Origin: Deltaproteobacteria bacterium
Lineage (GTDB): Bacteria; Desulfobacterota; DSM-4660; Desulfatiglandales; Desulfatiglandaceae
Assembly: GCA_034522175.1 (NCBI GenBank)
Contig: JAXHLQ010000001.1
Location: 4,529,685-4,593,684 of the forward strand
DNA length: 64,000 nt
Direction: 5' to 3'
Below the pieces are notes generated by a model. The model was not told the origin of the DNA. It ran no database searches and saw only the letters and a program-made list of their open reading frames with translations. The stretch's first letter is position 1; each line of letters begins with the position of its first letter. Below are positions 2,165-19,081 of this stretch, one piece after another. The position numbers and the translations under genes were made by a program.

Positions 2165-3469
2165 TCAAATTGCGGATTTCAGCTGCTTCAGTTTTTCCGG
2201 GCGGTTTTTAAGGAACATGCAATGATTAAGGGTTGTTTTTCCGTCGATGGTATCTTCGGCAAAGGTCTGGCAATCGGGGCACCCGCACATGCCGCACTCC
2301 TTTCTGGGAAGGGCCTCCATAATTTGTTTCACCTTGTTCAACCGCTCGATGTTTTCTGTAATGGACCGGCCGGAGTCGGCGGGAATGAGCTGGGATCTGT
2401 CTTTTTCCGTGAAGAACCATCCCTTCTTGTATAAATCAATGACGTATTTATATTTGATGCGTTTTTCCGAGCCAAACATGCGGATAAACTTCTGGAGGAG
2501 ATGTTTGGCCCGGTACTTGTCCTCAACCGTAAAGGGCCCGCCGATACACCCTTCACGACAGACCCGGCATTCGACATAGTCCAGATCATCGAGGATTCCC
2601 ATCTCGATCTTTTCAAGATACAAAATGGTTTCATCGAGACCCGAGACGGCAAGACAGTTTCTGTCCAATCCCGCCACTTCACCCCCCGACACGCCCCATC
2701 CCAGTCCGATCCCACTGGAGTGGTGCAACACACGGTCGTCATCGATTTCCTTTAGATTTCTTTTAACCGCTTCATAAACGCGGTTAATTCCCACTGCCTT
2801 ATCCATCCCGGCATATTTCCGATTCACGGATTCCTTGACAAAATCGGTCATGGCCGGGCAGGGGGTAATGTTCAAGATTCGAACATCTTCAGGTTTATAC
2901 CCGTACTTGGTGGAGATTCGTTTCTTGCCCTCCCTGGAGACGATCTCACGCGGTGTGGCGAGCGGGGGGATGTGCTTTAGAAGCGTGGGAAACCGGCAGG
3001 CGATGAGGCTGACCACCACCGGGCATACCGGAGAGATGAGTGGAAAGTGAGAATCCCCTTTCTTGCGTTGTTCCCGGATGTACAACTCGATGGCAAAATT
3101 GAACAATTCAGTGGTGTACGATTGATCGTGCACATACCCGAATCCCATTTTCTTGAGGGCCAGCAGGATGTCGTTGGGCAGATAATCGGATCCGAACTGA
3201 GAATAGATCACCGTGGAGGGACTGATGACGAACCGATCGTCCCCGTTTAACTCATCTTCCTTAAACCCCGACAGGCTGATGGCATTTTTCGGGCAGACAC
3301 GGATGCATTCACCGCAGTTGATGCAAACCCCTTCTATTCTCGCTGCTTCCTTCCTGACACGGATCGCCTTGGTCGGGCATGCCTTCATGCAGAGGACGCA
3401 TCCAGTGCATTTATCCACATCCACCTGGACATGAGGTCTTCTTCTTTCGGCTTCAGATGAGCTGCTCAC
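2165..3469 (-). CDS. [FeFe]-hydrogenase large-subunit-like protein, putative sensory/non-catalytic type (2x[4Fe-4S] ferredoxin N-terminus plus an H-domain-like core and a C-terminal Cys cluster).
   Basis: Ferredoxin motifs CTGCVLCMKACP and CINCGECIRVCP. H-cluster-like motifs are degenerate: SPVCPVV (vs TSCCPxW), TPCPAMTDF (vs MPCxxKxxE) and VECRVCREGCIGGP. A C-terminal CGMCGCPDC cluster is present. Confidence 0.75.
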   Translation of the reverse strand: MSSSSEAERRRPHVQVDVDKCTGCVLCMKACPTKAIRVRKEAARIEGVCINCGECIRVCPKNAISLSGFKEDELNGDDRFVISPSTVIYSQFGSDYLPNDILLALKKMGFGYVHDQSYTTELFNFAIELYIREQRKKGDSHFPLISPVCPVVVSLIACRFPTLLKHIPPLATPREIVSREGKKRISTKYGYKPEDVRILNITPCPAMTDFVKESVNRKYAGMDKAVGINRVYEAVKRNLKEIDDDRVLHHSSGIGLGWGVSGGEVAGLDRNCLAVSGLDETILYLEKIEMGILDDLDYVECRVCREGCIGGPFTVEDKYRAKHLLQKFIRMFGSEKRIKYKYVIDLYKKGWFFTEKDRSQLIPADSGRSITENIERLNKVKQIMEALPRKECGMCGCPDCQTFAEDTIDGKTTLNHCMFLKNRPEKLKQLKSAI

Positions 3470-4453: not shown

Positions 4454-7400
4454 TTAAAGATCGCATCGAAGACAGCGACGTGCCTCGAGACACGCTGCCT
4501 TTTCATCAATGCCCAATTCAACTTCATCGAAGTTATCCACCCGATCCGCCGCTGGCAGTTCATTCATCTCGGGTCGAACCAGTTTTTCATCTTCTTCTGT
4601 GGCCTCGAGGCGCGGCAGGGTGAGATGCGGCTTGGGGTGCCAGTAACCGCCGTAGGGCCGGTCCCTGAGATAACAATCGATGGATACGGCCGCACGATGC
4701 CCGGCGCCGATGGCCTCTACCACGGTCGCCGGACCGGTAACCGCATCCCCGCCGGAGAAGAATCCGGGTACATTGGTCGCCAGGGTGCGCTCATCCACCT
4801 CAAAACTGTTCCAGCGGCTGATATTGAATTGGAGATCGTCATTCAAAAACGAGAGATCCGGAGATTGACTGATGGCCGGGATGATGACATCGGTCTCAAT
4901 AATGAATTCCGAACCTTCAACAGGGACAGGCCGTCGCCGCCCGCTGGCATCGGGTTTTCCCAGTTCGTTGAAAAGGCACTCCATACCCACGACCTTGCCG
5001 TTTTCACCGAGGATTCGAATGGGGGACGTCAACAGATCGATCTGGATCCCTTCCTCTTCCGCCGCATCGACCTCGGCCGGGTTGGCCGGCATCTGCTCGC
5101 GCTGGCGGCGATAGACGATGTGGACCTCTTCGGCCCCGAGGCGCAGGGACGTTCGTGCCGCGTCGATGGCTGAATTCCCGGCGCCGATGACACATACCTT
5201 TTTACCGGGCGCCTTCTTTTCTCCCAGGTTGACATTTCTGAGGAATTTGGTGGCGTCGATGAATCCCTCGAACTCATCTTCCCCGGGTATTCTGAGTTTC
5301 AGGCCCTTATGTGCGCCAATACCGAAGAAAAACGCCTTGTACCCTGATGCTTTCATTTCATCGATGCTGATGTCCCTTCCCACACGAACGCCCAGTCGAA
5401 TCTCCACGCCAAGCCGTTTGATGGCATTGATCTCGTCGTTGAGTACATCTCGCGGGAGCCGATATTCGGGGATGCCCACATGGAGCATTCCCCCGGCCAC
5501 GGGGAGTTCTTCAAATACGGTCACCGGATATCCCTTGAGGGTGAGATCGTGGGCCACGGTCAATCCCGCGGGACCGGCCCCGATGACGGCCACCTTGTCC
5601 TCCGGAAAAAGGGCCTTTGCAGGTTCGATATCCTTAAGGCATTCTCGATTTTTATCTGCTGCAAACCGCTTCAACGCACAGATGGAAATGGGTTTGTCCA
5701 CATCCCCCCGGGTGCATTGGGTTTCACAAGGGTGCGGGCAGATACGGCCCAGGCACATGGGGAGGGGGTTTTCCATCCGGATAATGTCCCATGCCTTTCT
5801 GAATTCACCCTGGGCGATAAGCGCCGTATAGGTGGATACATCCTGTCCCGTGGGACAGGTGGACTGGCACGGCGGCGCACTGAGCCGTTTGCAGGTTCCC
5901 GTGGGGCAGTGTTTATCGAAGATGTGGGCCTCGTATTCGTGGCGAAAATATCTCAGCGTGCTCAAAACCGGGTTGGGCGCGGTCTGACCCAAACCACAGA
6001 GCGATGCGGATTGAATGACCTTGCTCAGGGTTTCCAGCCGTTCGATATCATCGGGCCTTCCGTCTCCCTGGGTAATACGCTCCAGTATGTTCAAGAGCTG
6101 TTGGGTGCCTTCCCGACACGGTGTGCATTTGCCGCAGGACTCCTCTGCCGTAAAACCGAGGAAAAACTTGGCAAGGTCCACCATGCAGGTGGTCTCATCC
6201 ATGACCACCATTCCCCCAGAGCCCACGATAGCGCCGGTCTTGGCGATATTTTCATAATCCACCGGTGTTTCAAGTAGGCTTTCCGGAATACACCCCCCGG
6301 AAGGGCCGCCGAGTTGCACCGCCTTGAATCGCTTGTTGTCCGGGATGCCGCCGCCGATATCGTAAATAATGGATCTGAGCGGCGTTCCCATGGGCACTTC
6401 TATCAATCCGATGTTGCGTACCCGTCCGCTCAGGGCAAACACCTTGGTCCCGGTACTCTTCTCCGTCCCGAGACTACTGAACCATTCTGCCCCGCGATAG
6501 ATGATCTGGGGAACATTCGCAAGACTCTCTACGTTGTTGAGAACCGAAGGACGGTCCCACAGTCCCTTATGGGCAGGGAAGGGGGGCCTCGGCCTCGGCA
6601 TGCCCCGTTTGCCTTCAATGGACCGCATCAGGGCCGTCTCCTCACCGCATACGAAGGCGCCGGCGCCGAAATAGAGTTCGATGTCCATGTCAAACCCGGA
6701 GCCGAGAATATCCTCGCCCAAAAGCCCGTAGTCCTTGGCCTGCCCGATGGCGGTCTGCAGTCTTTGGATGGCCAGGGGATACTCCGCCCTTACATAGATA
6801 AATCCGTGGTGGGAGCCGATGGCTTTCCCACCGATGATCATCCCCTCCAGTACCGCATGGGGATCACTTTCCAGTATGGATCGATCCATGAATGCGCCTG
6901 GATCGCCTTCATCGGCATTGCACAACATGTATTTGGGACTCCCTTCGGAACCCGCGCAGAACTGCCATTTGAGGCCGGTGGGGAATCCTGCGCCGCCGCG
7001 CCCCCGCAGCCCGGATGCCTTCATCTCCTCAACGATCTGTTCCGGCGTCATCTCCAAAAGGGCCTTGGCCGTTCCCATGTACCCATCCCGGGCGATATAT
7101 TCGTCGATGCTGTCGGGATCGATCAGGCCTCTGTTCCTGAGGGCCACCAGGACCTGGCGGCTGAAGAACCCGATATCCTTGATAGCGGGTACCAGTTGCT
7201 CCCCCTCCGGGCTCTCGAAGAGGAATTTCTCGGCGATACGACCCTTGACAAGATATTCCTCAACAAAATAAGGGACGTCTTTTGTTGTGAGTTTTTGATA
7301 GAAGACCCCCTCGGGATAGGCGATCATCAATGGGCCGGCGGCGCAGAAGCCGTTACATCCGGTGGTGGCCACATAGACTTCGTCCTGGAGCTCCCGTTTG

Positions 7401-7501
7401 TTGATCTCCTCGACAAGGGCGTCTCTCACATCCAGTGATCCACTGGATACGCAACTGGTTCCTGCACAGATGAGGAGATGAACGCGGTATTTCTTTTCCA
7501 T
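4454..7501 (-). CDS. NuoF/HydB-like NADH-binding FMN flavoprotein fused to a C-terminal GltD/NfnB-like NADPH:FAD oxidoreductase domain (StnB-like architecture).
   Basis: 1015 aa. Contains an N-terminal thioredoxin-like 2Fe-2S domain, the NuoF motif GRGGAGFPTGLKW, the ESCGKCTPCREG cluster site, ferredoxin Cys motifs, then GltD-like VAVIGAGPAGL (FAD) and VCVIGAGNSAIDAART (NADPH) Rossmann motifs. Confidence 0.9.
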   Translation of the reverse strand: MEKKYRVHLLICAGTSCVSSGSLDVRDALVEEINKRELQDEVYVATTGCNGFCAAGPLMIAYPEGVFYQKLTTKDVPYFVEEYLVKGRIAEKFLFESPEGEQLVPAIKDIGFFSRQVLVALRNRGLIDPDSIDEYIARDGYMGTAKALLEMTPEQIVEEMKASGLRGRGGAGFPTGLKWQFCAGSEGSPKYMLCNADEGDPGAFMDRSILESDPHAVLEGMIIGGKAIGSHHGFIYVRAEYPLAIQRLQTAIGQAKDYGLLGEDILGSGFDMDIELYFGAGAFVCGEETALMRSIEGKRGMPRPRPPFPAHKGLWDRPSVLNNVESLANVPQIIYRGAEWFSSLGTEKSTGTKVFALSGRVRNIGLIEVPMGTPLRSIIYDIGGGIPDNKRFKAVQLGGPSGGCIPESLLETPVDYENIAKTGAIVGSGGMVVMDETTCMVDLAKFFLGFTAEESCGKCTPCREGTQQLLNILERITQGDGRPDDIERLETLSKVIQSASLCGLGQTAPNPVLSTLRYFRHEYEAHIFDKHCPTGTCKRLSAPPCQSTCPTGQDVSTYTALIAQGEFRKAWDIIRMENPLPMCLGRICPHPCETQCTRGDVDKPISICALKRFAADKNRECLKDIEPAKALFPEDKVAVIGAGPAGLTVAHDLTLKGYPVTVFEELPVAGGMLHVGIPEYRLPRDVLNDEINAIKRLGVEIRLGVRVGRDISIDEMKASGYKAFFFGIGAHKGLKLRIPGEDEFEGFIDATKFLRNVNLGEKKAPGKKVCVIGAGNSAIDAARTSLRLGAEEVHIVYRRQREQMPANPAEVDAAEEEGIQIDLLTSPIRILGENGKVVGMECLFNELGKPDASGRRRPVPVEGSEFIIETDVIIPAISQSPDLSFLNDDLQFNISRWNSFEVDERTLATNVPGFFSGGDAVTGPATVVEAIGAGHRAAVSIDCYLRDRPYGGYWHPKPHLTLPRLEATEEDEKLVRPEMNELPAADRVDNFDEVELGIDEKAACLEARRCLRCDL

Positions 7502-7547: not shown

Positions 7548-7931
7548 TTAGTAAGTGGTTTCGCTTCCGACAGAAAGCGCGTATTTGGATACGGGATGCC
7601 CGTTCATCACATGTTCGTCAAATATTTTTGTGGCTTTCTCCTCATCCAGCAATACATATTTGACCGGTGCGGAATCTTTCACCTCAACGGTCATCATCGG
7701 TTCGTGATTACAGAGTCCCGCGCAGCCGGAAGAAGTCAGGATGATGTCGGCGGCCCCTGTTTTTTGTATCTTTTCGAGTAGAAAGTTCATAATCTTTCGG
7801 GCGCCCGCAGCGATGCCACAGGTGCCGAGATGAACGGTGATCTTGACGCGGTATTCACCGGCGCGCAGGTTCACGGTTCCCTTTGCCGCTTCCTTGATGC
7901 GTTTAAGGTCTTCCACACGAAGCTTGGCCAT
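7548..7931 (-). CDS. Thioredoxin-like [2Fe-2S] ferredoxin (HydD/NuoE-fold small subunit).
   Basis: 127 aa: ...HLGTCGIAAGARK...SSGCAGLCNHEPMMTV..., the characteristic Cys pattern. Confidence 0.8.
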   Translation of the reverse strand: MAKLRVEDLKRIKEAAKGTVNLRAGEYRVKITVHLGTCGIAAGARKIMNFLLEKIQKTGAADIILTSSGCAGLCNHEPMMTVEVKDSAPVKYVLLDEEKATKIFDEHVMNGHPVSKYALSVGSETTY

Positions 7932-7965: not shown

Positions 7966-8499
7966 CTATGATTCCGGGTTATTCACCATTTCTTGAATCA
8001 GTTGCAATATTTTTGGGTCTGAAATGGTGCTGAAACCTTCGATTTCATCCTTGATGGAGCGGGTATCCAGGGATGTCCGCTTTCCATCCCGCTTGTATTC
8101 ATACACAAAGTCCACATCCGGATTCCCGGCAATGAGCGACACCAGCGTGGCACCCATGTCGCCCATGGGTTTCCGGTCAATATGTCCGGCCTGAAATGTC
8201 GCCGTTAGCTCGGTTCCAAGGCCCGCCTCGGAGGCAACAGAGAGTCGGCCGCCTGCCTCCCGGGCGGCCTGCTCAAAGAGGGGGATGCCGAGTCCCACCC
8301 GGCGGGTGGTTCGGGAGGTCACAAATGGATCCGTTACCCCCTTGAGTGTTTGACTGTCCATACCGTGCCCATCGTCTTTGATGGTAATTTGCAACAGATC
8401 GCTTTTTGTATCTTCGATGATGCGAATCTCCACGCGCGTGGCGCCGGCGGTTGTGGCGTTTTCAACAATGTCCAGTATATGAAGCGATAGATCCTCCAT
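7966..8499 (-). CDS. GHKL-superfamily ATP-binding protein (histidine-kinase-like ATPase domain only).
   Basis: 177 aa: HILDIVENATTAGATRVEIRI...DDGHGMD...RRVGLGIPLFEQAAREAGG...GLGTELT (N, G1 and G2 boxes). Confidence 0.8.
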   Translation of the reverse strand: MEDLSLHILDIVENATTAGATRVEIRIIEDTKSDLLQITIKDDGHGMDSQTLKGVTDPFVTSRTTRRVGLGIPLFEQAAREAGGRLSVASEAGLGTELTATFQAGHIDRKPMGDMGATLVSLIAGNPDVDFVYEYKRDGKRTSLDTRSIKDEIEGFSTISDPKILQLIQEMVNNPES

Positions 8500-8512: not shown

Positions 8513-9308
8513 CTAATTGAGGATTTTTCGTCCGTCCATGCCTTTCAAGGCCAGCTTCAACTCCGCCAACCGGGGCGCGGCAACCCGGACACGCGTCGGG
8601 CTTGTGCCCAATTCATCCAGGTCATGGGCATCAGAGGCGGATATGAACGGGACCTTCGCATATTCAGAGTAATCCGCCTGCGCCTGGGACAGCGTGAGTC
8701 TTCGCGAAATCTCCAGGGCGTCAAAATTCAGGTCATCCGGAATGAATCCCAGTTGGCTGATCACACTGAAACTCCGTCGATCGATGTGTGCCGCAACAGC
8801 CAGACCACCGTGTTCGTGAATGCCGTTGACCACTTCATGAGCGTCAGGACGGTTCCACCGATCAAAAGCCGCGTATTGATGGCCTCGGCTTCGTCATATT
8901 CGTTCGCCACCACCTGCAGTCCAAAGAGATCCGGGTCGTTTTCGCCCGAAAAAAGATGACGGTAGACAATCGCCTGCATGGACAGGGCTTCTTCAACATC
9001 TTCAAACAGGCCGATAATGTGTGCTTCCTCGGCGGTGGTGATTTCCATGCCTGGGATCACGACCAGCTCGGTCCCCGCTGCCGAAGCCATCACAGCAGCC
9101 GCATTTCGGCGCTGTTGTGATCCGTAATGGCGATCATCGCCAGTTTACGCTTTAGGGCTTCCCGGACAATCTTTACCGGCGTCATATCCAGGGTGGCACA
9201 AGGGGAAAGGCAGGAGTGAACATGGGTATCGATGGTGATCCACTTCAACGGCGCTTCTGTTCCAACTGCCACCCGCACCCCTTGTTGAAAATCGTCTGAG
9301 AAACTCAA
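8513..9308 (-). CDS. PHP (polymerase/histidinol phosphatase) domain metal-dependent phosphoesterase, interrupted by two frameshifts (about 8847-8848 and TTT 9104-9106).
   Basis: The three ORF fragments 9090..9308 (IDTHVHSCLSPC...ITDHNSAE), 8761..9093 (AAVMASAAGTELVVIPGMEITTAEEAHIIGLF...) and 8513..8833 (VVNGIHEHGGLAVAAHIDRR...SASDAHDLDELG) join into one PHP protein after single-base corrections. Confidence 0.8.
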
Positions 9309-9646
9309 CTACCGGCCACACCCATTTCAAAGAGCTTGCCGACCAACTCAAACGTAGGCATTTTACTGACCAGTATGGGGATCTGCTCTTCAACGGCCTT
9401 TTTGAGGGTCATGGGATCAGGTTCTCTGCTGTTGACCAGGATAATGCCCGAAAGCGATTTCATGACTGCGATGGCGACGATGTTCTGATGCGCCTGCAGC
9501 GTGACCCATAAATCGCCCTCCGCGGCATTTCCCATGACATCACTCAACAAATCGCTGGCATAACCGCGGGTGACCTCCCTGTCCAACTGCGTTTCTCCGC
9601 TTTTGATTTCAAGGTCGAGTTTTTCGATGATCTTCTGAAGCTTCAT
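9305..9646 (-). CDS. DRTGG domain protein (second copy).
   Basis: 113 aa: ...YASDLLSDVMGNAAEGDLWVTLQAHQNIVAIAVMKSLSGIILVN... It is a paralogue of 3970..4326. Confidence 0.8.
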   Translation of the reverse strand: MKLQKIIEKLDLEIKSGETQLDREVTRGYASDLLSDVMGNAAEGDLWVTLQAHQNIVAIAVMKSLSGIILVNSREPDPMTLKKAVEEQIPILVSKMPTFELVGKLFEMGVAGS

Positions 9647-9687: not shown

Positions 9688-12600
9688 TTATATCGTGCCC
9701 CGGTAGCTCTCCACAATGTCGACAATTTGTTTCGGGTCCACCTCTCCATGGGTGGTGTCATCCACCACCATGACCGGGGCGAGTCCGCAGGCCCCGATAC
9801 ATCGGACCACTTCCAGGGAATATTCCCTATCTTCGGTGGTTTCGCCGATTCCCACGTGGAGGTGCTGCTCAAGCTTTTCCAACAGTCTTCCCGAGCCCTT
9901 GACAAAACAGGCCGTACCCAAACATACCCGGATGGTGTGTTGTCCCCTGGGGACCATGGTAAAAAACGAATAAAAGGTGACCACACCGAATACATAGGAT
10001 GGTGCAACACCGAGTCCCAGCGCAATATAGTTCTGGACGGGAACCGGCAGGAAGCCCAGGATCCCCTGGACCTGCTGCAGCACCGGAATCAGCCCACCGC
10101 GTTTGGTTTTATAGGTGGAGAGTATCTCGTCAATTTTCTCTTTCGCGTCTGTCTTTTCTTCCTCCTGAAGGAGCGCGATAAAGGCCTCTTTGACTTCTTC
10201 CGGATTGCTGGGCGGGACCTGTGTGCCGATGCCTCCGCTCTTGGGAAGGGATTCCAGGAGTCCGCCGCAATGTTCCAGCAGCGTGCGATGGTGGTAATTG
10301 AAGGATGTCCAGCCGGGACGTCTGAGGGGGGATCGTGCATCCCTGGGTCCTGGAACCCCCAGTTTCTGCGGGTCGGTCAAAGGCCGCTGCACCCCCTGTT
10401 TCTCCATGCGTTCATAGGTCATCCCCTCGAGTTGAGGGATCAGGTCGATGATTTCCTTTTCCCAAATGTCACGGGGGGTGGATTCCGGCCATGAAAGGCC
10501 CAGTCGATTGGCCAACTGGGTGAAAATCCATGTTTCCGGTTGGGCATCTCCGGGAGCAGGCACCGCATATCGAACGCGACTCACGCGTCTTTCGCAATTG
10601 GTGTACGTGCCTTCTTCTTCAGCCCAGGCGGCGGCGGGAAGCACCACATCTGCGTAGGGGATGGTTTCATTGTTCAGGATATCCTGCACCACGAGAAATT
10701 CGACTGCCTCCAGGGCAGCGGTCACGTTGGGCATGACCGGTGTGGTGAGTGCCAGATTTTCGCCCACGCAATAAAGGACGCGGATGGGCGTGCCTGCCTC
10801 CTGCTTTCCATTGCTCAGGTTTTGAATCATCTCGGAAAACCGCAAGCCGGGTTTGCTGTTCAGCGAAGTTCCCCAGGCCGTTTCAAAGGCGTTACGCGAC
10901 GCGTCATCCTCCACCCGGGCGAATCCGGGAAGAAAGTTCGGCAGCAATCCCATGTCACAGGCCCCTTGGGAATTGTTCAGATCGCCGAGGTAGTTCACCC
11001 CCCCGTAAGGGACGCCGAGATTTCCGAGGACATCCTGTAGGGCCACAAAGGTCCTGGCAAAGGAAGCAACCTTGGACCCATACACCAGCATGGCCGGTTC
11101 TTCCCTGTCGAGAATGTCCACGGCGGACAGGATATCATCGGCTGTAAGCCCCGTGATCTGTGTCACCTTAGCCATGTCATAGCTTTGCGTGCTCTTTTCG
11201 ATATCCTCAGCACATGTTCGTCCTCTTTGGATGAGTTGATGCATGATACCGTTGATGAGAACGGACTCGGTGCCCTCTTTCAAAAGAAGATGGGTATTGG
11301 CAAAGGTGCCGATCTTCGTGGGTATGGAGTTTACAACAATGAGTTGCGCACCGGCTTCGGATGCCCGCTTGACGAATGTGCCGGCGACCGGGTTTTCTTC
11401 GGTGATGTCGCTTCCGATGAGCAAAATGCGCTTCGCCTTTTCCAGTTCAGAGAGCGGGTTATTCAGCCCGCCTGCGGCGAAGGGGGAGGCCAGGTTGTTG
11501 GTGCCGATGCCCACCCTGAAGAGCTTCTGCATGGTATAAAGGGCTTCGTTTGTGGATTTGGCCGAACAGATGCCTGCAACGGAATCAGGGCCTTCTTTTT
11601 CCACGGTTTCTTTGATCTTTTTGGCGATAAGATCCAGGGCCTCTTCCCAGGAGGCACCCCTCAACTCGCCGTCCTTTCGAATCATGGGTCGGGTGAGACG
11701 TTCCGGACTCTGAACAAAATCGTATCCGAAGCGGCCCTTTACGCAAAGCCGCCCATGGTTGGGTTGGACCCCTTCGACCGCCGTGACCTTCATGATGGTG
11801 TCATTCTTGATGTGAAGATCCAGCTGGCACCCTACGCCGCAATAGTAACAGGTGGTCCGGACGTGCCGGGCCTCCCACGGTCTGATCTTGTAGCGGCTCT
11901 TTTTCTCCACCAGGGCACCGACCGGGCAGGCCTGGATGCACTGACCACAGAATACGCATTCCGACCGATCCAGGGATCCATCCCCCATGGCGATAATCCT
12001 GGCTTCGGCACCTCTGAAGCCGTGGGAAATGGCGTTATTGACCTGGATGCTGTTGCAGGCCTCTACACACCGGCCGCAGAGAATGCAGCGTGAGGCATCC
12101 CTTACAATGAGGGGACTTGCCGTCTCCATGGGATATTCGGCTGGGGCCCGGACCAGTCCACCGGTATCCACCTGATAACGGTAGGCATAGGCCTGCAGTT
12201 TACAGGCGCTGTGGGCCGGGCAGAGCTCCGTGGTTTGGTCATATTGTTCCACCTGTCGCTGAAAGTCGGTCCAGTCGTCTGAGGCCTTTTTGGCCACTGC
12301 GCAGTTGTGATTGCCGGATTGGAGCAACAGGGCCAGAACCGTTTGACGGGCTTCTTTGACCGCAGGCGAGTTGGTATGAACCACCATCTTATCGCCGGCC
12401 GGGGCGGAACAGGAGGGGGCAAGGGCGCGGGCCCCTTCGATCTCCACGAGACAGACCCGGCAGGCACCGGTCGGTGTGGTGCCTTCAAGGTGACACAGGG
12501 TGGGAATGAAAATCCCGTTGCGTCTGGCCACTTCGAGGATCGTCTCTCCAGGGGTAAACGCCAATTGGCGACCGTCTATGGTAATCTTCTGTTCGGACAT
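9688..12600 (-). CDS. FdhA/NuoG-like molybdopterin-oxidoreductase-family iron-sulfur protein that lacks the formate dehydrogenase catalytic residues, fused at its C-terminus to a NuoE-like [2Fe-2S] domain.
   Basis: The start is preferred at ATG 12598-12600 (MSEQKITIDG...), with GGAGAG upstream. The N-terminus has a 2Fe-2S fold and 2x[4Fe-4S] motifs (CILCGRCVEAC, CVFCGQCIQACP), followed by the MopB 4Fe-4S site CYYCGVGC...GRLCVKGRFG. Where FdhF has NNVDCCARVUHGPS, this protein reads IGTNNLASPFAAGGLNN. The C-terminal ~150 aa are NuoE-like (...RGGLIPVLQQVQ...CLGTACFVKG...CIGACGLAPVMVV). Confidence 0.85.
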   Translation of the reverse strand: MSEQKITIDGRQLAFTPGETILEVARRNGIFIPTLCHLEGTTPTGACRVCLVEIEGARALAPSCSAPAGDKMVVHTNSPAVKEARQTVLALLLQSGNHNCAVAKKASDDWTDFQRQVEQYDQTTELCPAHSACKLQAYAYRYQVDTGGLVRAPAEYPMETASPLIVRDASRCILCGRCVEACNSIQVNNAISHGFRGAEARIIAMGDGSLDRSECVFCGQCIQACPVGALVEKKSRYKIRPWEARHVRTTCYYCGVGCQLDLHIKNDTIMKVTAVEGVQPNHGRLCVKGRFGYDFVQSPERLTRPMIRKDGELRGASWEEALDLIAKKIKETVEKEGPDSVAGICSAKSTNEALYTMQKLFRVGIGTNNLASPFAAGGLNNPLSELEKAKRILLIGSDITEENPVAGTFVKRASEAGAQLIVVNSIPTKIGTFANTHLLLKEGTESVLINGIMHQLIQRGRTCAEDIEKSTQSYDMAKVTQITGLTADDILSAVDILDREEPAMLVYGSKVASFARTFVALQDVLGNLGVPYGGVNYLGDLNNSQGACDMGLLPNFLPGFARVEDDASRNAFETAWGTSLNSKPGLRFSEMIQNLSNGKQEAGTPIRVLYCVGENLALTTPVMPNVTAALEAVEFLVVQDILNNETIPYADVVLPAAAWAEEEGTYTNCERRVSRVRYAVPAPGDAQPETWIFTQLANRLGLSWPESTPRDIWEKEIIDLIPQLEGMTYERMEKQGVQRPLTDPQKLGVPGPRDARSPLRRPGWTSFNYHHRTLLEHCGGLLESLPKSGGIGTQVPPSNPEEVKEAFIALLQEEEKTDAKEKIDEILSTYKTKRGGLIPVLQQVQGILGFLPVPVQNYIALGLGVAPSYVFGVVTFYSFFTMVPRGQHTIRVCLGTACFVKGSGRLLEKLEQHLHVGIGETTEDREYSLEVVRCIGACGLAPVMVVDDTTHGEVDPKQIVDIVESYRGTI

Positions 12601-12777
12601 GTTCACTCTCCGACGGATGTTTTTCGCGCAGAGACGCAGCGGCGCAGAGAAAGAATAAATTCCTGCGGGTGATTTCTGTTGGCGCAAAATGGCATATGTG
12701 CTTATCGCCTTTCGTAATTCAGATTACTGGGTTGAACCTCAGGACATCTGTTCGCATGCCGTGAGGAGGCTAAACGT

Positions 12778-14861
12778 CTACTGACCCGTTTTCCATGTCT
12801 GCGATTTCGGATTTTTGTAACAAATCAGACCGCAGTTGAGACATCTGCGGGCCTCGTTTCTCGCAGCAGCTTCATCGAGCCCCGGCCAGGGTTTGGGGAA
12901 AATCCAGGCACTCTCACTATCCCCCTCCACATCGAGTGAAGGCGGTCGCTCTCTTTCCAGTGTCTCGACGTGGTGGACTTCTGATACATCCAGCACGGAT
13001 GCGGCTTCACACACCAATTCATCCATCGATCCAACCTGTCCGTCCGTAAGGTAGGTATGGATGGCACGGCAGAGCCGACGTCCTGAGAGGATCGACTTGA
13101 CCACCGCCGAAGAATCGCTGAGCCTGCCGGGTTCCGGTGCAGTGAACACGCCATTCCGGCCCGTTTTTGGAAACGTGTGGAAGGTTTCAACGGTTCGCCA
13201 CTGTGAGGCGGCCGCGTCCGTGGTGTCATCCGAGTCATCGGGGACAAACACCAACTCCGGGAGCCGGGCGCCTGGGAAAACAACACTGTCCACATGACGT
13301 GTGGTTGTTTCCACGAAATCCGCGCGCCGGGAATCTCGCGTTTCCAGTCCGATATCCGTCAGGCGATCATCGGTTCCTTTGAGGAAGGTCACATGGGTGG
13401 AAGCGTGAATCTCAATCCCCTCGGCAGCCAATGCGCGGGTATCTTTGAATGCCGCAGGGAGTTCGGCGGGATCAAGGTTTGAAATGATGTGTACCGTTTT
13501 TGCCCCCTGCTTTTTCAGCGTGCGTGCCAGGTCGAGTCCTTCAGCCATGTTGTGGACGATGGCGACCTCTTTGCCGATGTTGACCGTTTCGTTCGCAGCG
13601 AGGGCGGTCCAGAGATCCAGCAATATGAAAAGACCCTGAAAGGGGAGGTCAAACTGATTGACTTCAGGACGGAGGATCTTTTGGCTGTCGATCCCGCCTG
13701 TTGTCAGCACCACCGCATCATACCCTTCGTGCAGAAGCCCCCCCGGCGTGAAATCCCGACCCATGACCCTATTGGTTTTTGCCTCCACACCCATTTTCAG
13801 AATCCCATCAATTTCATGATCCAGGATGTCCCGGGGAAGCCGGTCTTCGGCAATGACATACCGTAAAATGCCTCCCAGTTCTGGTTTAGCCTCGAAGAGG
13901 GTAGGTCGGTAACCGAGCCGGGCCAGATAATAGCCGGTGGTTAACCCTTCGACACCGCCGCCGATAACAGCGATTTTGCGATGGTTGTCGTCGGCCTTGT
14001 AGGGATTGATATGGGCGTCGTTGGCCATCTCATATTCGGCGACAAATCGTTTGAGGGAATTGATGGCCACGGGTTCATCCACCATGTTTCGTCTGCAGGC
14101 CATTTCGCAGGGAGCCGGACAGATATGCCCGCAGATGAGCGGAAGGGCGCATTTCTCCTTTATGGTGAGGAGGGCCCCCGGGTAATCCCCGTTGTGGATC
14201 TGGCTGATATAGCGGGGGATGTTGATGCCGGTGGGGCAGGTCCGCTGCAAGGGGCCGTGCATTCGTCGGTCTGATATTCGTCGATGATTCGAAGTGAGTT
14301 GGAACTGAGGGTAATGATGTGTTTCGGGCAGATTCGCTCGCAGGTGCCGCAGCCTGTGCATCGCTCTGTGTTGACGATGGGCAGGTTGTCGGGCCCGATG
14401 GTGAGCGCATCAAAGGGGCACGCGCGAACACAGGTGCCGAGTCCCAGACATCCGATGGGGCATTCTTTGGACCCTCCTCCCAGCAGCATGGCGGCGCGAC
14501 AATCATGAATGCCCTGATAGATGTATTTCAGGTCTGCTTCCTGGGTTCCATAGCGGCATCCCGGGAATGCAAATTCGGGCTCCCTGAGCTCCAATTCCAC
14601 GCCCATGATGGCCGCAATTTCAACAGCGATCTCAGCTCCGCCTGCGACGCAGGAGGACGGTGAGGATTGACCGGCTACAATAGCGGCGGCGTTGGAACTG
14701 CATCCGGGTAATCCGCATCCGCCGCAGTTCGCCCCGGGGAGCGCATCGTCCACCGCTTCGATCTTGGGATCCACATACACGTAGAACACCTTCGAAGCCA
14801 GTGCCAGGCAAATGCCGATGGCAACACCCAATCCCCCCATTACCAGAAACCCACCTAACAT
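12778..14861 (-). CDS. rnfB: RnfB (Rnf complex subunit B) fused to a GltD/NfnB-like FAD flavoprotein domain, interrupted by one frameshift near 14245-14250.
   Basis: ORF 14160..14861 has an N-terminal TM helix, the CGGCGLPGC motif and 2x[4Fe-4S] motifs (CLGLGTCVRACP, CTGCGTCERICP). ORF 12778..14361 continues in another frame as ...CPTGINIPRYISQIHNGDY...ICPAPCEMACRR...KIAVIGGGVEGL. One added base gives ...DECTAPCQRTCPTGINIP. Confidence 0.8.
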
Positions 14862-14955: not shown

Positions 14956-15530
14956 CTACACCATCCCTTTAAAAGCGAAAAAAGCGAGGGAGATCATGCC
15001 TGCGGTCACGAGCCCGATGGACGTATCCTGCAAGGGTTTTGGAACCCTGGCGAGGAGGAGACGTTCTCGAATCCCCGCAAAGAGAATCAGGGCCAGTCCG
15101 AAGCCCACCGCATAGCTGAGAGAGGCCACCAGTGCCTGAACAAAACCGTATTCTTCGTTGATATTGATGAGGCATACCCCCATGACCGCACAATTGGTGG
15201 TGATGAGGGCAGGAATATTCCGAGCCCCGCATAGAGCGTCGGAATACTCTTTCTCAAAAACATCTCCACCAGTTGGACCAGGGATGCGATGACCAGGATG
15301 AAGGCCAGTGTCCTCAAATATTCAAGCTCAAACGGTCGGAGAAGAAATGTGTTGACGATCCAGGTGATGGCGCCTGCCATGACCAGCACGAATACGACCG
15401 CCATGGCCATTCCGGTGGCCGTCTCCATCCGTTTGGAAACCCCGAGAAAGGGACAGTTCCCGAGGTATTGCATCAGCAGGATGTTGTTGACAAAGATGCA
15501 GCTGACGATCAGTAAGATGTAGTCACCCAT
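14956..15530 (-). CDS. rnfA: Rnf complex subunit A, with a frameshift in the G3 run at 15207-15209.
   Basis: ORF 15087..15530 reads MGDYILLIVSCIFVNNILLMQYLGNCPFLGVSK...LYAGLGIFLP. ORF 14956..15183 reads ...CAVMGVCLININEEYGFVQALVASLSYAVGFGLALILFAGIRERL. One added base restores GIFLPLITTNCAVMG. Confidence 0.85.
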
Positions 15531-15548
15531 TCTGCTGCCTCCGATCGA

Positions 15549-16145
15549 TTATCTCATTTTCCCCAGCATATTCATTACACACAGCATCAACCCCAGACAG
15601 ACGAACGCCCCCGGGGCCTGCACCATGAAACCGAATGGCTCAAAGCTCGGCCCAAACACCGGAATATCGTAGAAGGTCCCATTACCGAGGACCTCACGAA
15701 CGATGGAGAGGGCGGTCAGTGACAGGGTGAAGCCCACGCCGATGCCGAGTCCGTCGGCAAAGGAATGAACAACCCCGTTCTTGGCGGCGAAGGCCTCTGC
15801 CCGGCCCAATACGATGCAGTTGACCACAATGAGGGGGATAAAGATGCCCAGTTTCAGAAAGAGGGATAGGCGAATGCCTGCATCACCAATTCGACTACGG
15901 TGACAAAGGTGGCGATCACCACGATGTAGCAGGCGATTCCGAACCCGCTTGGGGATGACGTTTCTGAGCAGCGATATCAGGACATTGGAACACACCAGCA
16001 CGAATGTGGTCGCGATGCCCATGCCGATCCCGTTTTCCACCCCCTTGGTCACGGCCAGCGTCGGACACAGGCCCAGAACCAGGCGAAAAGGTGGAATCTT
16101 GGCCCAAAGCCCTTTGGTGAATTCTTGAACTGCCGTCTTTGCCAT
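15549..16145 (-). CDS. rnfE: Rnf complex subunit E. The ORF stays open, but about 25-30 internal codons (about 15862-15937) are out of frame because of two compensating indels.
   Basis: The in-frame text ...IPKRVRNRLLHRGDRHLCHRSRIGDAGIRLSLFLKLGIFIPLIVVNCIVLGRAEAFA is unlike RnfE. The +1 frame of the same DNA reads IACYIVVIATFVTVVELVMQAFAYP, which matches the RsxE/RnfE consensus ([24 protein letters not shown]). Confidence 0.85.
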   Translation of the reverse strand: MAKTAVQEFTKGLWAKIPPFRLVLGLCPTLAVTKGVENGIGMGIATTFVLVCSNVLISLLRNVIPKRVRNRLLHRGDRHLCHRSRIGDAGIRLSLFLKLGIFIPLIVVNCIVLGRAEAFAAKNGVVHSFADGLGIGVGFTLSLTALSIVREVLGNGTFYDIPVFGPSFEPFGFMVQAPGAFVCLGLMLCVMNMLGKMR

Positions 16146-16160
16146 TTCCGCACTCCCTCA

Positions 16161-16760
16161 CTATTGTGTAAGCGCCTTTACCCCCTTGGCGATATCTGTT
16201 TTTATCCGCTGGTAGCGCGCGCTCGTTTTTCCGACCGCACCGCACACCCCCCGGGATGAAATGGTCGCGCCGCTGAGTGCATCAATCTGCCCGCCGTCGG
16301 CCTTTACCTTGAATGGGTCCTGAACGGGAAGCCCTTCAAATTGTTCGGTAAATGAGGCGTCGGTCTTTGCGCGCGACCCCACGCCCGGGGTTTCGCTGTG
16401 GGTGGTGACCTCCACGCCGACGATTTCGTCTGTGTCGATATTCACACCGACAACAACACCGATATCCCCGCCGAAGCCTTTGCCGAAAGATTCCAATGCC
16501 ACCACATTGGGCTTGCCGTCAAACACACCCACAAAAACCGTTGTTTCCTCCCCATTATCCGTCACCTTGAATCGATCGGTAATGGGATTGTTGGTACTGC
16601 CCTTTAGAATTTCATTGATGGCCGGTCCCTTGACGAACTTGAGCTGCTGGTATTCGATCCGATCCTTGGTGGCATTTTGAATGGCCGCCAGCACACCGCC
16701 GGAGAGCGAACTGAAAATGACAATCACTATGAACAGTTTCATCATCTCACGCATCTTCAT
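16161..16760 (-). CDS. rnfG: Rnf complex subunit G (FMN-binding).
   Basis: 199 aa with an N-terminal TM anchor and the covalent-FMN motif SGATISSRG. Confidence 0.85.
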   Translation of the reverse strand: MKMREMMKLFIVIVIFSSLSGGVLAAIQNATKDRIEYQQLKFVKGPAINEILKGSTNNPITDRFKVTDNGEETTVFVGVFDGKPNVVALESFGKGFGGDIGVVVGVNIDTDEIVGVEVTTHSETPGVGSRAKTDASFTEQFEGLPVQDPFKVKADGGQIDALSGATISSRGVCGAVGKTSARYQRIKTDIAKGVKALTQ

Positions 16761-17715
16761 GCCTCTTTCCCAGGGCCCTCGGCCTGATTTTGTCGAAAAG
16801 CGGATTGGCCACGTTGACCATCAGAATGGCGAACACGACGCCGTCCACAAAAGCACCGATGTTGCGGATAAGAACGGTCAGAAATCCGGCGCATGCCCCG
16901 TATATCAGCATGGGCAGGAAGTTGACCGGAGATGAGGAATCCTCTGTGGCGAGGAAAAAGGCTCCGATGAGGGTGTATCCCGTCAGGAGGTGAAACAGGG
17001 GGGGGGCATAGGCCGCTGAGTCGGCCACGTAAAACAAAAGGGCGGTCATAAAGACCCCCGTCAGAAAAGAGAGGGATATCTCCCACCGAATGAACCCTCT
17101 GAGCATCAGATAGACGCCACCGATGATGAGCCCCAGGCCGAAGGTGGAGCCGATGGCGCCGGGCTCCTGGCCCATCAACAGATCGCCCAGGGGGTAATTG
17201 TACAGGACATCGGTCCCGAAATATTTCAGGGCGCTCAACGGATAGACCATGGTCACCCCAAGATCGTAATGGACCAGGGCCTCGTTAAAATCGAGCATGG
17301 CCTCCCATGACAGCATGATCATGGCGATGGCCACCAAAGAGGGATTGAGGGGATTCCCGCCGACCCCGCCAAAAATCTGTTTTCCGATGACGATGGCGAT
17401 AAATGTGCCCACCAGGACCACCCACCACGGCGTGGATGCGGGGAGTAGCATGGCAAAGAGCAGACCGATGACCGCCGCATTCCCGTCTCCGATACTGATG
17501 GGTCTTTTCATTACCAGATTCATGAGGAGTTCCCAGCCAATGGCAAAGGAAACGGCGAAGGCCACCACACCGAGGGCGGGCGCCCCGTATTGATAGATTC
17601 CCATAATGACCGCTGGAAGCGCGGCCAGCATGGTATGGTAACTCTTGGCGCAGAGACCGCTTCCATTGTGCCAGTAGGGGGCGTATGACCCAATAAAAAG
17701 CTTTTTATTCTCCAT
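16747..17715 (-). CDS. rnfD: Rnf complex subunit D (polytopic membrane subunit).
   Basis: The start is preferred at ATG 17713-17715 (MENKKLFIGSYAPYWHNG...), with GGAGGA upstream. The tracked ORF 16747..17928 begins inside rnfC. The sequence is typical of RnfD/NqrB. The expected [S/T]GAT site reads VTMVY by eye. Confidence 0.8.
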   Translation of the reverse strand: MENKKLFIGSYAPYWHNGSGLCAKSYHTMLAALPAVIMGIYQYGAPALGVVAFAVSFAIGWELLMNLVMKRPISIGDGNAAVIGLLFAMLLPASTPWWVVLVGTFIAIVIGKQIFGGVGGNPLNPSLVAIAMIMLSWEAMLDFNEALVHYDLGVTMVYPLSALKYFGTDVLYNYPLGDLLMGQEPGAIGSTFGLGLIIGGVYLMLRGFIRWEISLSFLTGVFMTALLFYVADSAAYAPPLFHLLTGYTLIGAFFLATEDSSSPVNFLPMLIYGACAGFLTVLIRNIGAFVDGVVFAILMVNVANPLFDKIRPRALGKRHEDA

Positions 17716-18992
17716 CGGATTCCTCCGCGGCCCGCTGTAGAGCGAGTTCATGTTTCCCGAGCATAATGTAGTGAAATACGGGAATGTGAAGCATGCAGAC
17801 GTAACTGCAGAGACCGCATTCAACACATGACAGGAGGTCATAACGCTGAGCGGCTTCTTCATAGAGCCGGTTTTCAAGCAGGCGCACGAGCATGTTGACC
17901 GGTAGCCTTGCAGGGCAGGCCCGCACACATTCTCCGCAATTCACGCATGGGCTGTCCGAGGCCGCGACGATCTGATGCTTATCCTGAATAAAGATGGCAT
18001 CGGTGGTGTGCATCACCGGCATCTTTTCTGAATAGACGCTGTGGCCGGTCATGGGTCCGCCGAAGACGATCCGGTCTCCCTGATCGGTTGATATGTCGAG
18101 GTCGGTCAGGATGTCCTCTACGGGCGTCCCGATTCTTGCCCGTACAAGGCTGACGCGGGCGTCTTTGTGGATAACGGAGACGACCTTTTCCACCGGCGGC
18201 CGTCTGTCGACGAAGGCTGTTTTAAGGGCCAGTACGGCTTCGACATTAAGGACCCCCACGCCCAAATCGGAGGGGGTATGGTCACGGGGATATCCTGGTT
18301 CAGGAGGTCTCGAACCGTAAACCAGGGGAGGGCCTTTGGATAAGTGGGATCGATAACCTTGACTTCCGCACCGGTCTTCTCGGCCGCTGATTGCAGGCTG
18401 GGTGGAATAACCAGGATGACGCGAGCGGCCCCCGTTATGTCCTTGAGACAGCTTACGCCCTCCCTGATTCCCGTGGCTTCGGTGTTGAGGATAAATTGTT
18501 GGGTGGACACCAGAAGATCCTGATCGATGCCGTTTATAATAAGGGTATGGACAGGGTTCTCAATGTCGAGTATCGCGTGAACATCCGCCATGCCGGGGAG
18601 GCGGGGAGAAATTCCCGGGCGACCTGGGCACTCGGCGATTCGGCTGCATCCGTGAATCCGGTGTCCCATCTGTCCGGTTCATCCACATCGATGGTCACGC
18701 AGATGGAGCGATGATCGGTATAGGTGCTGTCTTCAAAAACGGCGTCAACCGTCCCGGTAGCTGTGGTCGTGAGATTTCCTTTCTTGCCTCCTGAAAAGGG
18801 AACTGCCGCTCCTGTCTTGACCTCTGTGTCCTGCCTGAGGCCAAGATCTCCCGGATGTATACGATTGTCATGCAGAAGGAGGGTTACTTTTTTTGGAAGC
18901 GGTATATCCCTGACTTCCGTCTGAGCGAAAAGCGCAATGTCCGCATATGTCAGTTTCGGTCTGGTAAAACCGAAAAATGGCCTTTTAATCAT
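17705..18992 (-). CDS. rnfC: Rnf complex subunit C-like protein, interrupted by two frameshifts (G5 18272-18276 and G4 18603-18606). The NADH/FMN-binding glycine motif is not recognisable.
   Basis: The fragments 18534..18992 (N-terminal barrel-like part), 18118..18669 (...HTLIINGIDQDLLVSTQQFIL...) and 17705..18265 (...CVNCGECVRACP...CVECGLCSYVC) join after single-base corrections. The consensus GMGGAGFPTHVK/NGAECEPYLT region reads LPGMADVHAILDI/NGIDQDLLVS. Confidence 0.75.
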
Positions 18993-19081
18993 CGCTTGCC
19001 TCCTGACTCATGAGAAAGGGACCCGTCTTTCCCATAAGAAAAGGGTTTGAACCTGATGCACATGGCGCTTTGGCGAGGATC

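Follow-up and report, generated by a model that had tools for sequence, protein, structure and literature searches.

The window considered here, a 64,000-nucleotide stretch of Deltaproteobacteria bacterium DNA (contig JAXHLQ010000001.1 of assembly GCA_034522175.1, positions 4,529,685 to 4,593,684 of the forward strand), carries on its minus strand a gene (9688..12600) for a 970-amino acid (aa) protein that joins a formate dehydrogenase (FDH)-like subunit to a NuoE-like domain. We think it likely, from sequence comparison, that this fusion is a dead, pterin-free descendant of a selenocysteine (Sec)-containing FDH, which would now act as an iron-sulphur (Fe-S) ‘wire’ and, together with its NuoE part, belong to a Hnd/Bfu-type module wired to Rnf. 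Catalytic residues and the cap domain have been lost, the ligands of the Fe-S clusters have been retained, and both the fusion and the operon around it are conserved. The idea of a dead FDH serving as a scaffold is already established for NuoG, StnC and NfnA; new here are a recent and independent loss of the active site of which intermediate stages survive, the covalent attachment of NuoE, and the conserved tie to an atypical Rnf operon.

Domain layout of the FDH-like::NuoE fusion

The enclosing open reading frame spans 9688..12687 (minus strand, as for all features of this gene); within it we take the ATG at 12600 (MSEQKITIDG...) to be the true start, this being the point at which the relatives all begin, with the frame closing at a TAA (9688-9690). 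The product is 100% identical to a database protein (P0001); residue numbers for Pfam and PDB matches run one higher than those of the protein, as these were translated from 12603 rather than 12600. Inspection of the frame found the terminal TAA as its sole stop and no in-frame TGA, just as the original prediction had said. A hidden Sec was considered and ruled out on this basis, whereas two catalytic relatives (loci L006 and L007; see below) have a TGA at exactly the position concerned.

Reading from the amino-terminus, the protein begins with a [2Fe-2S] ferredoxin domain (residues 1-80, 12361..12600; PF13510 at 6-79; ligands C36, C47, C50 and C64), followed by a NuoG-type region with a His-ligated [4Fe-4S] motif, H98-x-C100...C127-x5-C133 (12202..12309), placed by alignment with catalytic FDHs; the same alignment shows the motif to hold a conserved insert of 24-26 aa with an invariant tryptophan, W110. 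Two ferredoxin-type [4Fe-4S] sites come next (11926..12087; Fer4 and Fer4_Nqo3 Pfam matches), the first with ligands C172/175/178/182 and the second with C215/218/221/225, and after these a MopB-type [4Fe-4S] domain (11707..11865; PF04879 at 247-298; C251, C254, C258 and C286). The molybdopterin-oxidoreductase domains I-III that follow (10504..11700; PF00384 at 302-700, E=2e-54) are degenerate, their pterin-site residues being gone. A linker with an acidic helix, modelled at low to medium confidence (residues 745-822, 10135..10368), stands in place of the cap, and the carboxy-terminus is formed by a thioredoxin-like [2Fe-2S] domain of the NuoE/HndA/BfuC type (9691..10134; PF01257 at 824-967, E=2e-46; C893, C898, C934 and C938).

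The closest solved structures are the FdsA-type NAD-dependent FDHs 7vw6 and 6tg9 (E ~1e-113 to 1e-118, over residues 9-747), with the C-terminal part matching HydC/NuoE chains (8a6t_C, 1.6e-41; 7t2r_C, 6.9e-43). The [2Fe-2S] domain and chain of [4Fe-4S] sites at the N-terminus are homologous to those of HydA, NuoG and FdsA, as expected of a BfuA subunit, and the NuoE-type domain, with its four invariant cysteines and HydC-type chains as its top PDB matches, has the features of a BfuC, here joined to BfuA. The H-cluster domain PF02906 was not found in the fusion by Pfam search, which sets the protein apart from [FeFe]-hydrogenase large subunits. Assignment of the fusion as a putative BfuA (scaffold/wire) plus BfuC of a Hnd/Bfu-type module, working with a NuoF-type flavoprotein, is well supported, both by this homology and by two precedents from cryo-electron microscopy (cryo-EM; see below).

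Loss of the active site

Relatives of the fusion make up at least 120 clusters (at the 90% identity level), of which the 112 with a length of at least 930 aa were counted as full-length. When the Escherichia coli FdhF sequence (from the K-12 genome) is aligned with these 112 using MAFFT, a 15-column gap falls over FdhF D134-L148, and hence over both U140 and H141, in every one of them; at no point does a Cys or Sec followed by His appear at the active-site position. HMMER alignments to 7vw6 and to 9wxb_B (a near-identical chain of which, 6tg9_A, is listed as the Rhodobacter capsulatus FDH alpha subunit) set the same gap at ‘..dhctrlCH..’ and ‘..dtcarvCH..’. In the window protein the deletion lies at ‘GTNNLA|SPF’, between approximately residues 369 and 372 (11485..11496). 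The original prediction had located this loop correctly (11461-11520) and had rightly seen that the molybdenum ligand and its adjacent His were removed, but its estimate of roughly 12 missing residues was too small, the true figure being 15.

The catalytic arginine has gone too, as predicted: the position of FdhF Arg333 is occupied by G539 (codon 10984..10986) and, across the 112 relatives, by G (91), S (14), A (4) or T (3) and never by R or K. Likewise, the ‘WPC’ motif does read ‘QRPLTD’ in the window protein, to which this form is peculiar, most relatives instead having ‘QWPx’, also without the Cys. Pfam found no pterin-capping domain IV (PF01568), and FdhF can be aligned only as far as about residue 532 of its 715; with PF01257 matching at the C-terminus, the earlier reading of a cap replaced by a linker and a complete NuoE domain (9688 to about 10200) holds good. 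The linker does keep one nearly invariant motif, ‘FNYHHRTLLExCxGLLESLP’, a short remnant of the stretch that normally runs up to domain IV. Its conservation pattern (residues 766-785, DNA ~10246-10305) includes H770, H771 and C778, nearly invariant in 86 relatives; the motif may bind a metal or form a helix for docking.

Other parts of the pterin site are in varying states of decay. HMMER alignment to the FdsA structures sets ‘lrgqNNvQG’ opposite ‘LGDLNNSQG’, and the ‘NNSQGACDMG’ segment to which this belongs is retained in the window protein; in distant members it drifts (to LNNSTGSTLMG or QANSLGAVYMG), as would be expected once selection on the pterin site has ended. A region-wise test, using the 196 alignment columns that are invariant across six catalytic FDHs, found 33/36 kept in the [4Fe-4S]/domain-I part, 3/11 in the active-site loop, 22/55 over FdhF 151-330, 8/13 around Arg333 and 4/29 in the cap region. 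In keeping with this, the score against TIGR01591 (Fdh-alpha), at 423.9 bits, falls below the cut-off of 666.25. Judged by its sequence, the window protein is thus shown to be incapable of acting as a canonical FDH, and we would expect it to be free of pterin.

Retention of the Fe-S ligands and the fold

No ligand of the six predicted Fe-S clusters varies among the 86 relatives aligned, and the five N-terminal sites are intact, as the original prediction had it. The cysteines of the MopB [4Fe-4S] cluster are present in 112/112 full-length relatives, and K288, the equivalent of FdhF K44 (the Lys bridging cluster to pterin), is K or R in 108 of these; the protein thus has PF00384, PF04879, the proximal [4Fe-4S] and the bridging Lys by which a MopB fold is recognised.

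An AlphaFold model built from 86 sequences has a mean pLDDT (predicted local distance difference test) of 77.6, exceeding 90 over most of residues 300-740; an earlier run, with 14 sequences, had reached a mean of 63 and was poor in the Fe-S and NuoE parts. The model superposes on FdhF (1aa6) with a root-mean-square deviation of 2.7 Å over 537 columns, and on the FdsA-type enzymes with a template modelling score of ~0.6, and the fold of domains I-III is therefore retained. A Foldseek search of the PDB gave nothing beyond the matches already found by sequence.

A conserved family

The clusters range from 51 to 100% identity to the window protein, the full-length ones being 939-987 aa long, and PF00384 and PF01257 occur together in nearly all 120. 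Their sources are Desulfobacterota, Eisenbacteria, Kiritimatiellae and metagenome bins without classification, and the loop deletion, loss of the Arg and fusion to NuoE are common to all 112 full-length relatives. A search of 1.84 billion representatives at 50% identity yielded approximately three full-length fused ones (P0099, P0122 and P0123), with matches under ~47% identity covering residues 1-750 only; this collapse to about three representatives indicates a compact, yet widely sampled, clade. Its most divergent fusion, P0122 (48% identity), has a longer loop, yet neither the Cys-His nor the Arg.

The fusion gene was also aligned at the DNA level with that of L085, the closest syntenic relative, a Desulfatiglandaceae metagenome-assembled genome (MAG) in which the genes are intact. 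There are only two gaps, each a multiple of three. Since the fusion recurs across relatives and stays in frame, it must be a genuine architecture conserved in the family, and an assembly indel at the junction with NuoE is excluded.

Putative partners on the Rnf side

Twelve loci with the fused gene have enough flanking sequence to compare (the window, L002-L005, L010, L020 and L085-L089). A GltD-like gene lies directly upstream of the fusion in 12/12, and in 11/12 it is joined to a complete RnfB (N-terminal membrane helix, PF04060 and two Fer4), giving products of 691-718 aa; a full cytochrome c-rnfCDGEA set stands ahead of the fusion in 10/12. Of the other two, L005 is limited to rnfB::gltD-like, the fusion and nuoF::gltD, and L002 to the gltD-like gene and the fusion. 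In the window the cluster runs downwards from 19456, all on the same (minus) strand and with no opposite-strand gene in between.

The RnfB::GltD-like flavoprotein gene occupies 12778..14861 and encodes a transmembrane helix, the RnfB Fe-S domains and a GltD-like FAD domain, but is split in the window by a frameshift into an RnfB frame (14160-14861) and a GltD-like frame (12778-14361) that overlap by 202 nucleotides (nt) in different frames; ten relatives have the one fused 691-718 aa protein. The GltD-like part keeps its FAD motif, GGGxEGLT, and has lost both the NAD(P)H motif and the pair of arginines for the 2′-phosphate in 7/7 aligned cases, the window protein reading HNMAEGLD...IISN at its second dinucleotide motif.

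Genes for RnfC, RnfD, RnfG, RnfE and RnfA were located by tblastn at 14959-19000, with RnfC at ~17705-18992, and both RnfC and RnfA frameshifted; the intact reference for RnfC is L085:3779-5065. Aligned with Azotobacter RnfC (8ahx_C), ‘GlGGAiFP’ has become ‘GISDFT’ and ‘NGsEcEP’ has become ‘NGTDPDL’, with both [4Fe-4S] motifs kept; the PF01512 match is merely E=0.0055, and was weak or absent wherever Pfam matches for RnfC were listed. Loss of the NADH site from RnfC leaves an Rnf with no obvious site for a pyridine nucleotide, unless the module supplies one. Directly upstream of rnfC is a gene for a membrane-anchored, tetrahaem cytochrome of the c3 type with CxxCH motifs (19085-19456, minus strand; found by tblastn with the L003 and L085 proteins), which is conserved in the operons of relatives, where it is sometimes longer (234-256 aa).

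The predicted NuoF partner and small ferredoxin

Further downstream of the fusion, at 4454..7501 (minus strand), Pfam and NCBIfam identify a second fusion, NuoF::GltD, of 1015 aa, with an N-terminal [2Fe-2S], an FMN/NADH site, a [4Fe-4S] and a GltD domain. Its NuoF part (residues 5-540) is best matched by the bifurcating BfuB proteins (7t2r_B, 1e-233; HydB 7q4v_B, 5e-231) and more weakly by the non-bifurcating FdsB and Nqo1 (~1e-111 to 1e-121); PF01512, PF10589 and an N-terminal, PF01257-like [2Fe-2S] are all found, as are GRGGAGFP and NADEGDPG, in agreement with a BfuB identity. The GltD part (542-1014) matches the GltD domain of NfnA/StnC at 1e-100 to 1e-115, its FAD and NADPH motifs intact (GAGNSAID, YRR).

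GltD thus takes the place of the C-terminal 2x[4Fe-4S] domain of HydB in the window, L003, L005, L020, L085 and L086. A plain, HydB-like NuoF of 596-601 aa is found in L004, L010, L016 and L087-L089; C-terminal Fer4 matches were seen in L004 and L087-L089, L010 and L016 being judged by their NuoF part and length. Many further operons of the NuoE-Fdx-NuoF kind, in Syntrophales, Dehalococcoidia and Desulfobacterota, also have a NuoF::GltD (L041, L052, L067 and L075-L078 among them).

Between the two fusions lies a gene for a 127-aa, thioredoxin-like [2Fe-2S] ferredoxin (7548-7931, minus strand; Pfam, tblastn), which we take to be HndB-like. The NuoE-ferredoxin-NuoF arrangement would then presumably match HndA-HndB-HndC of the bifurcating Hnd hydrogenase, and we take HndABCD of Desulfovibrio fructosovorans as the Hnd-type system for comparison.

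Comparison with related complexes

StnC and NfnA, the BfuA subunits of Stn/NfnABC (PDB 8OH5, 9BOV, 9N5U), likewise have an N-terminal [2Fe-2S], NuoG/FDH-like Fe-S sites and a pterin-less MopB-like domain, and likewise go with subunits resembling NuoE and NuoF and with a flavoprotein module of the GltD type; it is their GltD domain to which the two GltD modules of the window operon are most similar. Cryo-EM showed no pterin density in the Fdh-like domain of Csac NfnA, the pterin site of which is incomplete (PMC11829005); in StnC the FdhF-like domain has no catalytic activity and serves in oligomerisation (PMC10482914), and Stn itself lacks formate oxidation activity (PMC7483475). The two arrangements nevertheless differ. 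In StnC/NfnA, BfuA carries an NADPH-binding GltD inserted behind its [2Fe-2S], a point at which the window BfuA has only a 24-aa insert; the GltD-like protein of the window family is a polypeptide of its own, in most loci joined to RnfB and without the NAD(P)H motif, with the NADPH-type GltD, when present, found on NuoF. NuoE is a separate subunit in Stn/NfnABC and fused to BfuA in the window family. Furthermore, similarity of the fusion to StnC/NfnA is limited to residues 128-554, and the protein is closer to true FdsA-type FDHs.

These last (Rhodobacter capsulatus, 6TG9; Methylorubrum FDH1, 7VW6; L006/L007) are the top matches in both sequence and fold, with the same order of Fe-S domains, L006 and L007 also sharing with the window lineage an fdhA-nuoE-nuoF gene order and the 24-aa insert. 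The fusion differs from them in having lost the loop, the Arg and the cap, in the change of many invariants on the pterin side, and in its attached NuoE. NuoG/Nqo3 is, like the window fusion, an FDH-derived, pterin-less molybdoenzyme fold carrying Fe-S clusters beside NuoE and NuoF; unlike NuoG, however, the fusion scores 304 bits against TIGR01973 (cut-off 470), has rnf and hnd-like neighbours with no nuo genes, and is fused to NuoE. Hnd/HydABC (PDB 7P5H, 8A6T) shows the same gene order of NuoE-like, small [2Fe-2S] ferredoxin and NuoF-like, with the same accessory genes, but has a hydrogenase large subunit where the window has an FDH relic devoid of an H-cluster domain. On the Rnf side, a c-type cytochrome gene directly upstream of rnfC is also found in other Rnf systems with a multihaem cytochrome c, namely Rnf-MmcA of Methanosarcina acetivorans and Desulfovibrio rnf; unlike these cytochrome-linked systems, the window has an RnfB with a GltD-like domain, an RnfC without FMN/NADH motifs, and a Hnd/Bfu-type module in the same string of genes.

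A survey of the Bfu family distinguished Nfn-, Fdh-, F420-, Wor-, Bam-, Codh-, Por-, Mbh-, Nuo- and Rub-Bfu types (PMC9304861), with Rnf appearing in its main text solely in the title of a reference, and a 2026 study of Desulfatiglans-related MAGs noted the c3 cytochrome in an rnf operon but treated ‘NuoEFG’ and Rnf separately (PMC13343851), its supplementary table giving NuoE/NuoG/NuoF a few locus tags from a second rnf set (HEFDMJ_22285-22345) with RnfC undetected. In open-access papers and bioRxiv we found no description of a BfuA::BfuC fusion, an RnfB::GltD fusion or an Rnf-linked Bfu module.

Probable origin from a selenocysteine FDH

Using the NuoE part as seed, a scan of 185,579 species genomes gave 80 loci, and a small library of domains was used to annotate them. 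L006 and L007 hold the nearest catalytic relatives (52-54% identity over the N-terminal part), in which FdhA has a TGA at the Sec position, a normal cap and the 24-aa insert (‘W[AT]DFQ’), with nuoE directly downstream and nuoF later. The Sec codons themselves (L006:4077-4079 and L007:11138-11140) split each gene in two in a stop-to-stop listing of reading frames. In the Cys-type relatives L008, L009 and L012, fdhA ends 3-30 nt ahead of nuoE.

Between these and the fusion stand L016 (a Spirochaetes bin), P0126 and P0129, which have retained the Arg, the cap and a loop of unchanged length but in which ‘CARLCH’ has become ‘TARLVD’, ‘TSRLFD’ or ‘ASRLLD’. L016 has the same Rnf operon, but with nuoE, ferredoxin, nuoF and the ligand-less FDH-like gene unfused. 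Degenerate FDH-like lineages (L016:9932-12727, P0126, P0129 and P0127) comprise a capped clade of ~900-930 aa, with V-D, F-D or L-D for the Cys/Sec-His, and among such forms is also one of 770 aa with Ser-His at the ligand position and neither Arg nor cap.

The simplest history suggested by these sequences would be a stepwise one, in which a Sec-FdhA of the Fdh-Bfu type lost its metal ligand, with deletion of the loop and cap and fusion to the downstream nuoE following. Loss of the active site would then have occurred within the Sec-FDH lineage, independently of, and much more recently than, that of NuoG. We also considered whether the 24-aa insert might be a family-specific scar of a lost GltD; alignment to NfnA (9bov_A) begins at residue 128 of the query and 568 of NfnA, past the point where NfnA’s GltD is inserted. 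The idea was rejected, as the Sec-FdhAs of L006 and L007 share the insert, leaving a coincidence of position only.

A proposed role, and the alternatives

The proposal that the FDH-like fold survives as an electron-transfer scaffold, in the manner of NuoG, was already part of the original prediction, and it gains support from the active-site losses in 112 relatives set beside invariant Fe-S ligands, from the region-specific loss of FDH columns, from the sub-cut-off TIGR01591 score and from the StnC/NfnA precedents. In such an arrangement the fold would serve just to hold and space the clusters and to dock partners, one [2Fe-2S] and four [4Fe-4S] forming a wire covalently tied to the [2Fe-2S] of NuoE/BfuC. 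The BfuA::BfuC protein would pair with the NuoF/HydB-type flavoprotein and small ferredoxin, as a putatively bifurcating NAD(P)H/ferredoxin module. Its third redox partner would not be formate but most likely the upstream GltD-like FAD/Fe-S protein, mostly fused to RnfB—a role suggested by the conserved gene order and fusions. Electrons might thus move between NADH, ferredoxin (with NADPH where NuoF::GltD is present) and, by way of RnfB, the Rnf core with its cytochrome c, the module supplying the pyridine-nucleotide site that RnfC has lost.

Several points weigh against this picture. Operon adjacency and domain fusion do not prove a physical supercomplex, and the want of an adjacent rnfCDGEA in L002 and L005 means that the module may also work without a membrane core. 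Bifurcation is not assured either, as the C-terminal 2x[4Fe-4S] domain of HydB is swapped for GltD; in a passage of PMC11829005 that cites HydABC deletions in T. kivui, the B3 and B4 clusters are given as necessary for bifurcating activity. The MopB-side clusters are a dead-end branch in StnC/NfnA; here, the strict conservation of their cysteines could reflect a structural function or an entry point. The AlphaFold models are poor at residues 90-245, with the second run unreliable at 150-242, so that the packing of NuoE against the MopB domains cannot be read from them. Finally, the frameshifts in rnfC, rnfA, rnfB::gltD-like and PHP (see below) would, if real, point to a system decaying in this organism.

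Of the alternatives, the one that fares best, though we regard it as unlikely, is a stand-alone NADH/NADPH/ferredoxin oxidoreductase resembling Stn/NfnABC, soluble or tethered to the membrane, beside which rnf would be a separate, conventional ion pump sharing its regulation and substrates. The kinship of both GltD modules with NfnA/StnC, the intact NADPH and NADH sites of the window’s NuoF::GltD, the two loci devoid of rnfCDGEA and the handling of Rnf and ‘NuoEFG’ as separate complexes in PMC13343851 all sit well with such an enzyme. Yet around half of the loci (L004, L010, L087, L088, L089 and the unfused L016) have the plain HydB-like NuoF, and with it no NADPH site in the module, which rules NADPH out as a third substrate common to all; the GltD-like partner, in every case aligned, is without its NAD(P)H motif and is covalently joined to RnfB in 11/12 loci, and RnfC has no NADH site of its own.

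It is highly improbable that the fusion is a still-working dehydrogenase, for formate or some other substrate, with a non-canonical metal ligand or cofactor arrangement. Such an enzyme would account for the nearness of the sequence and predicted fold to genuine FdsA-type and FdhF enzymes, for conservation of K288 and the adjacent [4Fe-4S], and for the pieces of ‘NNSQGACDMG’ that remain in close relatives; against this, the Sec/Cys-His loop, Arg333 and the whole cap are gone in every member, the ‘NNSQGACDMG’ segment decays in distant ones, and neither formate oxidation by Stn nor pterin density in the Fdh-like domain of NfnA has been seen.

Returning to the Rnf-linked scaffold, we can extend the idea, with rather less confidence, to a membrane-bound ‘Rnf-Bfu’ supercomplex, in which the fusion might be the central scaffold linking a Bfu head, RnfB-GltD, the Rnf pump and a periplasmic cytochrome of the c3 type. 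If real, it would tie flavin-based bifurcation or confurcation directly to the translocation of ions and to electron transfer in the periplasm, and would add a third membrane-bound type to the Nuo-Bfu and Mbh-Bfu already predicted (PMC9304861). Were the operon inference to hold, there would be a new link from a bifurcating flavoenzyme to the Rnf pump and periplasmic cytochromes in sulfate reducers and their relatives, for which the transmembrane route of electrons is a long-standing question; the RnfB::GltD-like fusion and the RnfC without an NADH site make this link directly testable. The series from Sec-FDH, through ligand-less forms that keep the cap, to deletion of loop and cap with gain of NuoE would capture a catalytic molybdoenzyme turning into a pure Fe-S scaffold, a parallel to the origin of NuoG that is recent enough for intermediates to survive. 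There is also a practical consequence: pipelines annotate the family as “formate dehydrogenase major subunit” or “molybdopterin-dependent oxidoreductase”, and reconstructions for Desulfobacterota, Eisenbacteria and Kiritimatiellae that count formate metabolism on this basis are probably wrong.

Frameshifts in neighbouring genes

Compared with the intact L085, genes neighbouring the fusion contain at least seven frame-breaking indels, often beside short homopolymers: in rnfC near 18802, 18606, 18458, 18451 and 18271, in rnfA at 15212, in rnfB::gltD-like at 14254, in PHP at 9235, 9107 and 8840, and in HATPase_c_2 at 3799. At 14254, for example, one base is missing from the window (‘ACGGC-CCCTTGCAG’ vs ‘ACGGCGCCCTGCCAG’). 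Nearly all are of single bases, the rnfC alignment additionally having a 4-base gap and two small insertions. Since the breaks in rnfA, rnfB::gltD-like, PHP and HATPase each amount to one missing base, errors in a long-read consensus are favoured over decay, and the pattern suggests that the neighbouring frameshifts are of this kind. The fusion gene and nuoF::gltD (5.9 kb together) are free of frame-breaking indels, which at ~0.35 per kb would happen with a chance of ~0.1 and is therefore not significant.

That an indel created the FDH-like/NuoE fusion, or that the locus is a decaying pseudogene, has a negligible probability and for the fusion itself is essentially refuted already: at least seven single-base deletions do break neighbouring window genes relative to L085, but at least 120 independent clusters, drawn from a wide range of assemblies and phyla, contain the fusion, all gaps in its gene relative to L085 are multiples of three (that of NuoF::GltD being gap-free), and the amino-acid sequence of the linker is conserved.

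Accessory and flanking genes

Three further genes, all on the minus strand and identified by Pfam and tblastn, lie between the fusion and the small ferredoxin: a DRTGG gene (9305-9646), a PHP gene with two or more frameshifts (8516-9263) and a HATPase gene (7966-8499). DRTGG/CBS-HATPase/PHP/HATPase genes and the small ferredoxin recur in dozens of operons of the NuoE-Fdx-NuoF-HydA/FDH type, in Desulfobacterota, Nitrospirota and Syntrophales.

Beyond NuoF::GltD there follow a DRTGG-like gene, a HATPase_c_2 gene and an [FeFe]-hydrogenase-like gene (2168-3469, minus strand), the last having PF02906 and PF04060 in its L085 and L089 orthologues; we interpret it as a HydS-like sensor. A plus-strand gene of the RseC/MucC family (1698-2120) closes the cluster downstream, and one also adjoins the operon in L085-L089.

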